DNA of 25,278 nt from contig JBBQUC010000001.1 of NCBI GenBank assembly GCA_038212815.1, forward strand, positions 1-25,278. The letters are read 5' to 3'. Position numbers and translations under genes: made by a program. The notes under the pieces were generated by a model that did not search any database, had not been told where the DNA came from, and saw only the letters and a program-made list of their open reading frames with translations. Source of the DNA: Cytophagales bacterium. GTDB lineage: Bacteria > Bacteroidota > Bacteroidia > Cytophagales > Spirosomataceae. Within the stretch, counting starts at the first letter, position 1. Every line of letters starts with the position of its first letter. This document shows, piece after piece, positions 259 through 4,073 of this stretch.

Positions 259-351
259 CTACCAGTTGTAAAACCAAAGCTACCGCTTTTTTGCCGAACA
301 CTGCCAGCTACCAAGTATAGCCATCGGGCCGGTAGCTACACACCAACTTTG
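259..351 (+). promoter_or_regulatory. Shared 93-bp upstream cassette, copy A
   Basis: ACCAGTT (261), ACCGCTT (282) and GCCAGCT (303) at 21-bp spacing, ending in CCAACTTTG (343-351). Ungapped alignment to 2151-2243 gives 69/93 identity by hand count. Confidence 0.75.
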
Positions 352-376
352 TTCCATCACCCCAAAATTTAGTATC

Positions 377-2035
377 ATGACACTCTTCTCTAACCTGTCA
401 CGTCCTGTCCTGAAAGCGACCGTCCTGACCACAATGCTGGGCCTATTGGTAGGTTGCCAGGAAATCAAAGACATGGCTGAGGTAAAGCCACTTAATGGTG
501 TTACCTATAAACTCAATTTCCAGCCCGCGCCTACCTTAGTAGAAGGCATGGTGGTCGATGCGAAAACGGGTTCCATGCTCGACGTGCCGGTTAACGTAAT
601 CATAGTCGGGAAGGATGCAGGCCGAACCGTTGACTTTGCCGGCCGGAGTATTACCCGTTACAAAACCGAATTAGGCAACTTCCAGATAGGAGTCCGTGGC
701 AGCGTTCCTACCGAAACCGCCCCTGCCGAACTGCGGGTCCTGATTGAGGCCGACGGGTATGTGTCATCCAGTGTCAACCTGCAACTGACGCAGGCAATCA
801 ATGACCCATTTACGATTCAGCTGGTTAAAAAGAGCGATGCACCCGACGGTGTGGCAGCTACCACCAGTACGCTGACAAACAACGCAAGCGGTGCTATACT
901 GGCCGACCAGCAGATACAGGTAAAGTCGCCTGCCGTAGGTGATTCCGTTCCGGCCATGGAAACCCGGCTGCAAATAGCTGCCAATACGGTAATGAAAGAT
1001 GCCAGCGGCCAGCCTGTGACGGGTAACGTAACCGCTTCCTTAGTGGCTTTTTCGGGTGAGAGCAGTGCGGCCATGCGTGTATTTCCGGGCGGAGGTAACG
1101 CAAGCATAGCTACCGATTTTAATGGCAGCACGGATACCCGATTCCCCATGAAACCCGGCGGATTTACAGCGATAAAACTAACGAACGGCAATGGGCAAAC
1201 GGTAGCTACATTCAGCAAGCCTGTCTGGATAACCATGAGTATAGCTCCTTCGGCAATCAATCCGGCTACGACTAAACCCTATGCCGCAGGCGACACACTG
1301 ATGACCTACAGCTATAGCGATTATACCGGCGAGTGGACGTATGAGCATAAAGGGATAGTTGAGCAGCAGGCATCCGGTTTAGTAGCCCGCTTTTACACGA
1401 TGCACCTGACTGATTTTGGCTGGTGGGGGAATATCTACGACTTTTTTTACTATCTGTTTAAGACACCTTCGCGACCCGTTTACCGAAATACGTACGTCAC
1501 CCTCCCCTCACTGCCTGATAATTATACGTATAAATTCCAGTCTCAGTCCTGGTGGATGAAGAATGCTTCTCAGGATTATGCTAAATCGTCTCGTAGTAAA
1601 ACGCTTCTTTTGGGGACGGATGTAGTAGGTAACAAAGATTATGAGGTCATTATCTCGACGACCTATGGCCAAACATTATACAAGGGCAAGATAAAAGCCT
1701 GCCAAAACAATGTGTTGACTACTGTCAGATTCCCGGCAAGGGCATCCGTTGCTTTCGACATATGGGGGTATTGTGCCAACAATGCCAATACCCTGATTTA
1801 TCCATTTGCCAACGTCTGGTATAAAAAACCATATGAGTCTGATTCGGACTATAAGTATGGCTGTAGTTTAGAGTTCGGCAAAGCGACAATGACCGATCTG
1901 GAACCCAATACCGACTATTCATGCCGGATAACGTATGCGGGTAAAGCCAATTATTTTACGGTACGTACCAAAGCAACGTATGGAATCTATAGTCAGCAGA
2001 TTGCCATTCCCGCAACCGCAAATTTGTGTCAATAG
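377..2035 (+). CDS. Lipoprotein of unknown function, paralog 1, with a GPS-like HLTDF motif
   Basis: 552 aa with lipobox LLVG-C27. Residues ~27-345 are clearly homologous to 5742..7358. H343-L344-T345 lies at 1403-1411. The C-terminal region is Cys-containing and beta-rich with an FN3-like L-x-PNTDY segment. Confidence 0.85.
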   Translation: MTLFSNLSRPVLKATVLTTMLGLLVGCQEIKDMAEVKPLNGVTYKLNFQPAPTLVEGMVVDAKTGSMLDVPVNVIIVGKDAGRTVDFAGRSITRYKTELGNFQIGVRGSVPTETAPAELRVLIEADGYVSSSVNLQLTQAINDPFTIQLVKKSDAPDGVAATTSTLTNNASGAILADQQIQVKSPAVGDSVPAMETRLQIAANTVMKDASGQPVTGNVTASLVAFSGESSAAMRVFPGGGNASIATDFNGSTDTRFPMKPGGFTAIKLTNGNGQTVATFSKPVWITMSIAPSAINPATTKPYAAGDTLMTYSYSDYTGEWTYEHKGIVEQQASGLVARFYTMHLTDFGWWGNIYDFFYYLFKTPSRPVYRNTYVTLPSLPDNYTYKFQSQSWWMKNASQDYAKSSRSKTLLLGTDVVGNKDYEVIISTTYGQTLYKGKIKACQNNVLTTVRFPARASVAFDIWGYCANNANTLIYPFANVWYKKPYESDSDYKYGCSLEFGKATMTDLEPNTDYSCRITYAGKANYFTVRTKATYGIYSQQIAIPATANLCQ

Positions 2036-2150
2036 CTGTTGCTAAGTAACTGATTCCGTTGGCCTTGTTGGGATAAGAGTAGAAAATTGAGCTACTCCCC
2101 GGCAGGGTCAATTTGTGTTTAGCCGGTTTTGTTCTTCTTCCGGTTATGGG

Positions 2151-2243
2151 CTACCAGTTGCCAAGTAAAATCCACCGCTTTTTTGCTGAATACCGCCGGT
2201 TATTAAATCCCGTCATCTGGCCTGTAGCGATACCCCAACTTTG
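2151..2243 (+). promoter_or_regulatory. Shared 93-bp upstream cassette, copy B
   Basis: ACCAGTT (2153), ACCGCTT (2174) and GCCGGTT (2195) at 21-bp spacing. CCAACTTTG at 2235-2243 is at the same offset as in copy A. Confidence 0.75.
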
Positions 2244-2251
2244 GGGTATCG
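2228..2251. promoter_or_regulatory. Perfect 11-bp inverted repeat overlapping the CAACTTTG box (candidate operator)
   Basis: CGATACCCCAA-CT-TTGGGGTATCG. Confidence 0.5.
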
Positions 2252-2281
2252 AACAAACACGAACTGCTTGCGCCAAACGCC

Positions 2282-3931
2282 ATGAATACCTTCGATCAAA
2301 TCAACTGGAATACCACCGATACACGGCCCGGCCTGTATAACCACGTGGGCTACGTAGCTACCACCTACCGCCAGGTCCAAAACATCGACGCGCTGACAGC
2401 CGCCCGGGAGTCGTTCGCCATTGCCCAGCCGGGATACGCCAGTGCCATTAAAACGGTGTTTCAGGGAGCCGAGGTCGCGCTCATCAACATGACAGCCCTG
2501 CTCGAACAGGCCACCACATGGCTGACTGAAGGCAATGTGGCTGAAGCCGCCGAGATGCTGCTTGTGTTCAAAGGGTTCAATGCCTGCATGACGCAACTAA
2601 GCCGGATACCGGGTGAGTTGGGCGGCTGCAATGATTTTGATGGGGAACCACTGGCATTGAGCATTACCGACTCACCAAACTACGATGCTTTTCTGCATAC
2701 CAAAAAAGCATTTGATAAGGCATTACTGCGGCAATATCAGGTGCTGTACCCATCTGACTGCGGGGCCGATTCAGGGCTGGGGATGGTGATGAAACACCAG
2801 GGGCTGGGTGATGTAACGTGCCAGATGCAACAGTTCATTGCCCAGGCCGACCACGATATGCGCGTTTGGTATAACAACCTGAAAAACGTAGTAGTCGATG
2901 CTCAGGATACCGATTATCGGGAGTTTGTCGGTACGGCGCACATTACGGAGGCTATTCAGCACCCGCACTATGGCCCCGAAACGCTGATGAACCCCTTCCG
3001 GTCGTTCCATATCGCCCCCGAAATCATCGCCGTTGAGATTAACGAACACATCCGCTTTGCCACCGATTGCATTGCCTGTTATGAGACCACTGACAACCAG
3101 GCCCAGCTACAGCAGGCCTACGAACACCTGAAATGGGGCAATACGCTGTTCCCCTGCATTCAGAAGTGCTTCGATGCGCTGGCCGAGGGATTGTCGTATG
3201 CCCAATACCAAAAATTTCGGGGCAACTTCGGGGCTACCAGTGCGAGCGAATCGAAGGCCATTGCCCGCGACTTGCTGAAGCAGCTCCCCGCCCGGTTAGG
3301 CTGTGCAGTGGTCGATGCACTGACGGGCATTACCACCAACCCCAAACACCCGAAAGCCACCCACGAGGTAGCCGTTGCCCTGCTGAAACCCGCCTTGAGT
3401 GACCCCGACCGCTGGCTATGGCGGATGATCTCGCAGGAGTGTGTGCGGCTGCACACCCACATAATGACCTGGTATGATGGTCATTTCAAACTGCCAATTT
3501 TGCAAGTTGGCTCGTCGCCCTCGCTGGCCGGAGCCAAAGATGCCATTCAGCACAATTTCAACTTGCAGAACCGGGTGCGTGAGCATAACCCGCTTAACCC
3601 ATTGGTAGCCGCCCGACATCGGCCCGTTGCCCTCAACCCCGATATTGACCAGGCCAACTCGTTAGCAGCCTACATCAATTCTGAGGAATCGTTTTTCAGT
3701 GTGCGGGCTAGTACCATTGGGGCCGTCAATCGGTCGATGCTGAGTCACCTGCGCGATGGACACCCTGATTTCGACCGCCTGAAAACCCTGCAAAAAGCCT
3801 ATCGGGAAGAAGAGAAGCAACTTGATGCTGCCGAAGAAACCCGCCTGAACAACCGCTCGGAATCCCTGAAAAGTGTCTCAAAATGCCCATTTCATCACCT
3901 CTGGGCTGTAGTCAGTTCTAAAATTAATTAA
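2282..3931 (+). CDS. Tryptophan 2,3-dioxygenase-like (heme-dependent aromatic oxygenase fold) protein with an internally duplicated domain
   Basis: The C-half carries TDO-like motifs: FRSFHIAPE (cf. FIxxHQxxE; H243 at 3008), YQKFRGNFGATSASES (cf. YxxFRxxLxxASGFQS) and WYDGHFKL..QVG (cf. WRxxHxxxVxRxIG; H401 at 3482). The N-half has degenerate counterparts FQGAE, SITDS and WYNNL. There is a CPFH motif near the C-terminus. Confidence 0.65.
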   Translation: MNTFDQINWNTTDTRPGLYNHVGYVATTYRQVQNIDALTAARESFAIAQPGYASAIKTVFQGAEVALINMTALLEQATTWLTEGNVAEAAEMLLVFKGFNACMTQLSRIPGELGGCNDFDGEPLALSITDSPNYDAFLHTKKAFDKALLRQYQVLYPSDCGADSGLGMVMKHQGLGDVTCQMQQFIAQADHDMRVWYNNLKNVVVDAQDTDYREFVGTAHITEAIQHPHYGPETLMNPFRSFHIAPEIIAVEINEHIRFATDCIACYETTDNQAQLQQAYEHLKWGNTLFPCIQKCFDALAEGLSYAQYQKFRGNFGATSASESKAIARDLLKQLPARLGCAVVDALTGITTNPKHPKATHEVAVALLKPALSDPDRWLWRMISQECVRLHTHIMTWYDGHFKLPILQVGSSPSLAGAKDAIQHNFNLQNRVREHNPLNPLVAARHRPVALNPDIDQANSLAAYINSEESFFSVRASTIGAVNRSMLSHLRDGHPDFDRLKTLQKAYREEEKQLDAAEETRLNNRSESLKSVSKCPFHHLWAVVSSKIN

Positions 3932-3939
3932 CCCCACCC

Positions 3940-3974
3940 TCTCCGCATCAGCCCTGTGCTGGTGGGGAGATTTT
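3940..3974 (+). terminator. Probable intrinsic terminator after the TDO-like gene
   Basis: Stem TCTCCGCATCAGC / GCTGGTGGGGAGA (one mismatch, one G-U) followed by TTTT. Confidence 0.6.
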
Positions 3975-3980
3975 CCCCTT

Positions 3981-4073
3981 TCGCCACTTGTCAAGTCAAA
4001 TCCACCGCTTATTAGCCTAACCCTGCTACAGATGAGTTTGGCCCCTTTTGCGCTTTTTAATAAGCCAACTTTG
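3981..4073 (+). promoter_or_regulatory. Shared 93-bp upstream cassette, copy C
   Basis: GCCACTT (3983) and ACCGCTT (4004) are 21 bp apart. CCAACTTTG at 4065-4073 is at the same offset. 55/93 identity to copy B, concentrated in the first 40 and last 13 nt. Confidence 0.7.

Follow-up and report, generated by a model that had tools for sequence, protein, structure and literature searches.

This study concerns the first 25,278 nucleotides (hereafter the window) of contig JBBQUC010000001.1 of a Cytophagales bacterium (Spirosomataceae; GenBank assembly GCA_038212815.1), a metagenome-assembled genome (MAG) with a completeness of 68% that we denote G000, its contigs being given C-numbers (C20, C416 and so on). 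Near the start of the window, three forward-strand genes are each preceded by a promoter cassette of 93 bp, and these three cassettes and the regulatory system to which they may belong are our subject. Cassette A (259-351, +) lies in front of gene 1 (377-2035, +), which encodes a 552-aa lipoprotein-like protein with 46% identity to a paralogue encoded at 5742-7358. Cassette B (2151-2243, +) serves gene 2 (2282-3931, +), encoding a 549-aa all-helical cytoplasmic protein with five homologues. Cassette C (3981-4073, +) serves gene 3 (4105-4818, +), and probably also genes downstream; the 237-aa secreted product of gene 3 has a weak CarO-like match and is probably a small outer-membrane beta-barrel. 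No Pfam family matched genes 1-3. A terminator-like hairpin (2058-2112, +) stands between the end of gene 1 and cassette B (folded stretch 2030-2150, -41.1 kcal/mol, z -3.4), and a second one (3940-3970, +; -20.4 kcal/mol, z -3.8) follows gene 2, with a T-rich run and then cassette C behind it. Since these strong hairpins separate the preceding stop codons from cassettes B and C, each cassette would start its own transcription unit.

Aligned without gaps, cassettes A and B are identical at 69 of 93 positions, A and C at 54 and B and C at 55, with 47 columns the same in all three, while 200,000 random pairs of 93-mers drawn from the window reached a mean identity of 23.4 (standard deviation 4.3) and a maximum of 49. 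An independent repeat search of the window also recovered the cassettes (repeat D1, 74% identity; repeat D2, three copies). The likeness extends from the first box to the G of TTTG (CCAACTTTG) and not beyond, ending 25 nt (A), 38 nt (B) and 31 nt (C) before the start codon. All three cassettes carry three boxes and a -7 box on the forward strand. In cassette A, these are R1 at 261-268 (ACCAGTTG), R2 at 282-289 (ACCGCTTT), R3 at 303-310 (GCCAGCTA) and the -7 box at 344-351 (CAACTTTG); in cassette B, R1 at 2153-2160 (ACCAGTTG), R2 at 2174-2181 (ACCGCTTT), R3 at 2195-2202 (GCCGGTTA) and the -7 box at 2236-2243 (CAACTTTG); in cassette C, R1 at 3983-3990 (GCCACTTG), R2 at 4004-4011 (ACCGCTTA), a degenerate R3 at 4025-4032 (GCTACAGA) and the -7 box at 4066-4073 (CAACTTTG). 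An initial annotation of this sequence had described the same elements by hand, and recomputation returned its identities for A/B and B/C unchanged. The words that it named were all found: RCCASTTG (as ACCAGTTG in A and B, GCCACTTG in C), ACCGCTT 21 bp on and CCAACTTTG at a constant distance in the three cassettes, and a third repeat another 21 bp on that is clear in A and B (GCCAGCTA, GCCGGTTA), with only the degenerate GCTACAGA in C. Taken literally, this composite of words occurs three times in the whole assembly, and CCAACTTTG alone 36 times against about 32 estimated by chance.

The layout common to the cassettes consists of three 8-mers, RCC[A/G]nnT[A/G], at 0, +21 and +42 (8 bp plus a 13-bp spacer), followed by 33 nt and a -7 box at +83. 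A first scan of the genome with a position weight matrix (PWM) of the 8-mer, summed at 0, +21 and +42 and controlled on the reversed genome, picked up additional sites on other contigs, with five matches scoring at least 24 against none in the control, and all matches in the 21-nt register displayed AnnTTTG at one common offset. The composite score, adding the literature consensus TAnnTTTG at +83 to the three unit PWMs, yielded 16 matches at 24 or above against none in the reversed genome, and 19 against one at 20 or above. This is the genome scan that the initial annotation had proposed as a check, and cassettes A, B and C stand far above its threshold with scores of 42.6, 43.1 and 38.4. Under model R1, a sequence-only profile model of the promoter, they reach 54.3, 54.4 and 54.8 bits. 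Fifteen promoters align over 95 nt without any gap, the information peaking at the three boxes and at the -7 box, and in this alignment the 8-mers extend to RCCRSTTATMAAGT. The 13-bp spacer is present in 15 of the 15 promoters, with the same spacer in other genomes, and the gap from the third box to the -7 box is exactly 33 nt in G000 and 33 or 34 nt in relatives, 34 nt being found at many foreign sites. With a unit PWM built from the 12 promoters outside the window, eight of the nine window boxes rank within the top 1.5e-5 to 4e-3 of genome 12-mers, the degenerate third box of cassette C reaching only the top 3%. Judged from these alignments and scans, the three cassettes are members of a putative regulon of at least 15 promoters, and not a private three-copy family.

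Local duplication of a single promoter, through recombination or gene conversion and devoid of regulatory meaning, would offer a simpler account of the likeness between the cassettes. Pairwise identity within the regulon averages 45.4 ± 6.3 of 95 positions over the 15 promoters, and cassettes A and B exceed this average with 67 of 95; the excess is also visible in their spacers alone (29 of 51 against a regulon mean of 19.5 ± 4.5), suggesting that A and B may have a more recent common origin. However, the A-C and B-C pairs, both at 55 of 95, are only mildly above the average, and the 12 promoters on other contigs, together with dozens in other genomes, keep the boxes and their exact spacing while the spacers differ. 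The homologues of gene 2 speak in the same direction. Only five were found among 5.8 billion proteins, with 69-85% identity among them, and they occupy five unrelated gene neighbourhoods in five other assemblies; yet the three-box layout stands upstream of all five and matches model R1 in every case (E 3e-7 to 7e-3). Because these homologues keep the element in unrelated neighbourhoods, it appears to accompany the gene in the manner of a cis-regulatory site. We therefore regard duplication without function as highly improbable.

The last block of the cassette was read in the initial annotation as a Bacteroidota -7 box, and several observations agree with this promoter reading. The cassettes end 25-38 nt before a start codon, and CAACTTTG occupies the very column in which 10 sister promoters are perfect TAnnTTTG, from which it differs by one mismatch, a C replacing the first T in A, B, C and the promoter C20a described below. 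Upstream of the 2004 long open reading frames (ORFs) of the genome, TAnnTTTG occurs 408 times against 91 for the reversed word, with a peak from -50 to -10, which marks it as an ordinary promoter element of this genome. In addition, at the most distant gene-2 homologue (L005:9834-9960, +) the boxes are degenerate, and a perfect TTG-N18-TAGATTTG occupies the aligned position; this alignment supports the assignment of the last block as a -7 box, and it looks there as if a constitutive promoter had taken the place of activator dependence. The claim that the -7 box is weakened was borne out for A, B, C and C20a, but did not hold for most members, which have the consensus box, so that an intrinsic weakness of these promoters is only partly supported.

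A fixed-length, conserved non-coding block in front of many genes could also be a transcribed RNA leader (riboswitch or attenuator) or a small mobile repeat. Yet the only Rfam match was a tRNA, RNAalifold predicted zero consensus pairs over the 15 aligned copies, and conservation does not extend past the -7 box to the expected transcription start. Terminal inverted repeats, as a mobile repeat might carry, are absent, and the block always faces a gene, the end of the -7 box lying 22-62 nt from the first start codon across the regulon. Both variants appear scarcely credible to us. A promoter type dependent on an extracytoplasmic function (ECF) sigma factor was likewise considered and dropped, because the -7 box is of the sigma-A type and keeps a fixed distance, and because genes for sigma or anti-sigma factors are not linked.

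For the boxes themselves, the initial annotation had suggested LytTR-like repeats and an activator encoded outside the window. No LytTR gene was found in the window, and a candidate is located on contig C20. There, promoter C20a (C20, 7142, -) precedes genes for a 50-aa tail-anchored membrane protein, two kinases of about 1000 aa (Reg_prop, Y_Y_Y and PF06580 His_kinase domains) and a 263-aa Response_reg+LytTR regulator. The 8-bp boxes and 13-bp spacers fit published LytTR sites, and the boxes precede a LytTR-regulator operon in G000 as well as in three or more further genomes. The same succession of boxes, small membrane protein with an FDW motif, propeller/Y_Y_Y kinase and regulator recurs in G062 and G135, whose regulators share 84.5% and 84.8% identity with the C20 regulator, the next LytTR regulator of G000 reaching 42-45%. 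G061 (Spirosoma sp. HMF4905) has two regulator orthologues, at 84% and 83% identity; one is immediately preceded by a box-driven kinase, and a weak model R1 match is found 350 nt upstream of the other. In G142, a weak match (E 0.08) lies 3.3 kb upstream of the regulator orthologue.

This association was surveyed in 120 other genomes of the family, in which model R1 matches were counted at E<=1e-3. Spacing-conserved copies in relatives, on whose presence the initial annotation had made its interpretation depend, were recovered as full-length matches in G061 (nine at E<1e-5), G062 (four at E<1e-5 and a fifth at 1.4e-5), G142 and G135. Identity to the C20 regulator is bimodal across the 120 genomes, four reaching at least 81% (81-85%) and the rest at most 50%. 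Model R1 matches occur in all four orthologue-bearing genomes and in 5 of the 116 without an orthologue (nine genomes in all), giving by our own arithmetic a hypergeometric p of about 1.5e-5, a value to be read with caution since relatives do not count as independent genomes. No genome with several strong matches lacks the orthologue, and G061 combines two orthologues with the largest number of matches. Furthermore, orthologues of several regulon members (the DUF6252, 230-aa and 160-aa proteins and gene 2) are preceded by boxes in orthologue-bearing genomes too. The architecture, its exact spacing, its recurrence within and between genomes and its linkage to the regulator gene are direct observations.

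The genes behind the other promoters give the regulon a marked orientation. On C20, promoter C20b (12171, -) precedes a 55-aa class I lanthipeptide precursor (NF038153; leader KLTISKMTVSSL...GG and a Cys-rich core), followed by LanC, a C39-peptidase ABC exporter and an HlyD-like adaptor. Lanthipeptide precursors are also found behind the boxes on C484, where LanB follows, and on C89, where the contig ends; the three box-driven precursors on C20, C484 and C89 share the KLTISKMTVSSL...GG leader and the NF038153 match. On C242, a precursor-like peptide and a second GG peptide, both with 5-residue cores, precede a C39-ABC exporter. The remaining promoters lie in front of an ABC-2 transporter (C286), DUF6252 lipoproteins (C63 and C28), small proteins without family (C72 and C104), a methyltransferase, a kinase and an FAD oxidase (C345), a third copy of the gene-3-like/gene-1-like pair (C278) and an outer-membrane beta-barrel (C37, OMP_b-brl_3). 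The cassettes would thereby tie genes 1-3 to a gene set making and exporting lanthipeptides, a connection supported in silico.

The small FDW proteins behind several of these promoters form a tail-anchored family of 42-50 aa without Pfam or NCBIfam match. Members were found in the window (4860-4988, +), on C20 (L013:6868-7020, -), on C416 (L014:365-508, -) and in G062, G135 and G061 (L036, L041, L032). Outside the window, the small protein is the first gene behind boxes in five places, and a propeller/Y_Y_Y kinase comes directly next in four of these. The C416 copy belongs to a paralogous box-driven operon (L014, 1-632, -) in which the small FDW protein is followed by a propeller kinase and which runs off the contig end, an arrangement suggesting that two sensor systems act in parallel on one type of box.

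Published LytTR operators provide a close frame of comparison. They have been described as imperfect direct repeats of 8-13 bp about 12 bp apart, with critical spacing (PMC4064291), and as repeats of 9-11 nt with 11-13 nt between them (PMC4847170), and the spacer is 13 bp for YehT/BtsR of E. coli (PMC4222967). The 15 promoters display the corresponding features: at least two imperfect repeats, a fixed spacer, a constant phase with the polymerase region and a linked LytTR regulator. One of the closest analogues is the E. coli BtsS/BtsR (YehU/YehT) system, whose site was taken from the oligonucleotide in PMC4847170 and from the E. coli genome. The btsT (yjiY) promoter has ACCGCTTA-N13-ACCACTCA, with a further GCCGCTCA 20 nt upstream; like ours, it has an 8-bp direct repeat with a 13-bp spacer just upstream of the promoter, and its boxes closely resemble those of locus L003 (ACCGCTTA-N13-ACCACCCA), ACCGCTTA being also the second box of cassette C. 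Both systems have a LytS-family (PF06580) kinase partner. By contrast, the C20 regulator is only 31% identical to BtsR, its kinases have a periplasmic propeller/Y_Y_Y sensor where the Bts kinase is of the 5TM-Lyt/GAF type, three boxes replace two on a Bacteroidota -33/-7 promoter, and the targets are lanthipeptide and envelope genes instead of a CstA-type pyruvate transporter. Model R1 did not match the btsT locus, and under the non-window PWM the E. coli boxes rank only within the top 0.1-0.2% of 12-mers. We rejected an assignment to the Bts system on account of the BtsR identity, the other kinases, the other targets and the missing model R1 match at btsT.

In its mode of working, the element is more like the autoregulated bacteriocin or pheromone circuits of Firmicutes. 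These Gram-positive LytTR circuits (AgrA P2/P3, ComE, BlpR, PlnC/D, VirR) share other traits with this regulon, including imperfect direct repeats with a period of about 21 bp upstream of weak promoters, a positively autoregulated kinase/regulator operon (here predicted), and GG-leader peptides, C39-peptidase ABC exporters and bacteriocin genes among the targets (PMC4064291). They differ in phylum and promoter type, and in having HPK10 peptide receptors where our kinases are propeller/Y_Y_Y proteins of about 1000 aa; here, moreover, the operon opens with a small tail-anchored membrane protein and not with a pheromone precursor, three boxes are present and the -33 slot falls on the fourth 21-bp position. 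On the biosynthetic side, the known class I lanthipeptide clusters of Bacteroidetes, including the pinensins, combine leaders of the LxLxKx5L/GG type with C39 proteases (Walker et al. 2020, PMC7268733). Our box-driven precursors (C20, C484 and C89) resemble them in their LxLxKx5L-type leader (KLTISKMTVSSL...GG) and in standing beside LanB, LanC and a C39-ABC exporter, whereas that paper covers the biosynthetic genes. In the literature that we searched, no operator or regulator was found for Bacteroidetes class I lanthipeptide clusters.

Putting these elements together, we consider it likely that the cassettes are activator-dependent sigma-A promoters bound by the C20 LytTR regulator and forming a shared regulon. 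Each cassette would be a sigma-A promoter of the Bacteroidota -33/-7 type in need of an activator. If the -7 box is placed at -12 to -5, the boxes would start at about -95, -74 and -53, and being exactly 21 bp apart they would lie on one face of the helix. The phosphorylated 263-aa C20 regulator would bind this array as direct repeats and, once bound, recruit RNA polymerase. It would switch on its own operon (the small membrane protein, the two propeller/Y_Y_Y LytS-type kinases and the regulator), and co-activate genes for class I lanthipeptide precursors, LanB, LanC, the C39-ABC exporter and the ABC-2 transporter, as well as several secreted protein and lipoprotein genes, including window genes 1, 2 and 3 and genes downstream. 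The binding, an activating rather than repressing effect, the transcription starts and the signal are what we infer here. Were this scheme true, changing the -7 box from CAACTTTG to TAACTTTG would raise expression.

The sign of regulation could also be the opposite, the regulator binding the boxes but repressing, or acting in both ways, so that the cassettes would not depend on an activator. The annotation of E. coli BtsR is that of a dual regulator, and the 10 of 15 promoters with a consensus -7 box need not be intrinsically weak. However, none of the boxes reaches into the -33 slot downstream of them, and their helical phase relative to the -7 box is constant; this is the class I/II activation geometry of the Agr, Com, Pln and YehT systems (PMC4064291). 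A TTG located 17-23 nt upstream of the -7 box is found in only one of the 15 regulon promoters, compared with 23% of ordinary TAnnTTTG promoters and 15% of random positions. None is present in cassettes A and B, and cassette C has one only at a spacer of 15 or 25, outside the sigma-A -33 range. Repression or dual control appears quite improbable in this light.

Several observations weigh against the activator scheme, or against the protein that we assign to it. Fourteen of the 15 promoters lack a -33 TTG at the proper spacing, but this says little because only 23% of ordinary promoters here have one. A strict degenerate-letter (IUPAC) pattern of three RCC boxes and TAnnTTTG was not enriched over the control in the 120 family genomes, and a loose pattern of the first two boxes remained at control level in G061 and G062; only PWM or profile searches had enough power to find diverged copies. 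The linkage of the contigs to one organism rests on the binning of the 68%-complete MAG. Five family genomes have a model R1 match without a close regulator orthologue. Finally, the genome encodes 18 LytTR domains, and C416 holds a paralogous kinase operon that is box-driven as well; the C20 regulator may accordingly not be the sole or the right protein.

These last points lead to a different attribution, in which the boxes are real operators of a shared regulon but are bound by an AraC/XylS-type protein or by another LytTR paralogue, such as the partner of the C416 kinase. AraC/XylS-type regulators also use direct repeats with a 21-bp period, and the period alone cannot tell regulator types apart; the 18 LytTR domains, the boxed operon of a small membrane protein and a kinase on C416 and the five genomes lacking the orthologue would all fit such an attribution. 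Against it, the boxes precede the operon of this particular LytTR orthologue group in G000, G062, G135 and G061, the weak upstream match in G142 (E 0.08) agrees with a C20-type regulator, and the orthologue accompanies several strong matches wherever they occur. Furthermore, no AraC-type gene is consistently linked, and the 8-bp core with its 13-bp spacer is the YehT layout (PMC4222967). We hold a regulator other than that of C20 to be unlikely.

What the C20 system might respond to can be approached only tentatively. A peptide quorum-sensing and bacteriocin circuit in the Gram-positive style, here in a Bacteroidota, is conceivable by analogy, though we consider it rather doubtful. C39-ABC transporters would process and export GG-leader peptides (the C242 cores GLKTN and GFVLN, or lanthipeptides), which the propeller/Y_Y_Y LytS kinases would sense, perhaps together with the small FDW tail-anchored protein. 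The LytTR regulator, once phosphorylated, would bind the triple boxes and amplify its own operon, leading to lanthipeptide synthesis and envelope proteins, and window genes 1-3 might then serve immunity or uptake. On C242 (L015, about 1700-1940, -), the two GG-leader peptides, ending in INGG before GLKTN and in VNGG before GFVLN, lie between the box promoter and the C39-ABC exporter and adjoin an asparagine-synthase-like gene; they are possible candidate signalling peptides.

Downstream of gene 3, the window continues with the 42-aa tail-anchored protein mentioned above (4860-4988, +), which carries FDW and a hydrophobic C-terminus, and with a split paralogue of gene 3 (5008-5717, +). Its two ORFs, 5008-5385 and 5382-5717, correspond to residues 17-120 (47% identity) and 128-237 (53%) of gene 3, and judging from this alignment they represent one gene frameshifted near 5382, where the break falls, either a pseudogene or an assembly error. 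Directly after it, gene 6 (5742-7358, +), the paralogue of gene 1, is probably co-transcribed from cassette C. Immediately behind gene 6 lies a 60-aa ORF (7382-7564, +; MPMKTLHCHDVGFDCP...), a 62%-identical homologue of which in G061 (L028) is the first gene behind a strong box promoter (E 6.5e-8). In other Spirosoma genomes, homologues of gene 1 sit after a gene-3-like gene; no cassette was found at four loci with gene-1/gene-3 homologues there (L006, L007, L009, L010), and searches of G061 and G062 returned no homologue of gene 1 or gene 3.

The nature of the gene 2 product could be approached only in part. Its AlphaFold model (pLDDT, the predicted local distance difference test, of 46) is too low for a structure search, a PDB profile search was empty and a relaxed Pfam search returned only noise, while a search of the ESM Atlas gave a weak lead to the tryptophan-dioxygenase/Hs1pro-1 families (0.85) on which we do not rely. 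Next to the gene-2 homologue of G062, the closest relative, and divergent from it, stands an orphan 1020-aa Y_Y_Y/PF06580 kinase (L002:6295-9357, -) without neighbouring regulator; no box match was found at this locus on the strand of the kinase.

Pairs of a propeller/Y_Y_Y LytS-type kinase and a LytTR regulator are among the commonest two-component systems of Bacteroidota. In the literature that we searched, no operator, regulon or signal was described for these pairs. The mechanism proposed here is the known LytTR paradigm, and the box architecture matches published LytTR sites. What is new with respect to the searched literature is that a Bacteroidota two-component system of the propeller/Y_Y_Y-LytTR type is given a spacing-exact operator, a candidate regulator and a putative regulon centred on lanthipeptides. 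The locus supplies an operator model, a named candidate regulator and a putative regulon, at least 15 promoters in size, with class I lanthipeptide clusters among its members. Orphan genes, namely gene 2 with its five known homologues and the unannotated gene 3/gene 1 pair, gain a regulatory context, and the box promoter offers a design option for inducible promoters in Bacteroidota genetics. Finally, culturable Spirosoma relatives that possess the orthologous regulator and the boxes make this operator model directly testable.

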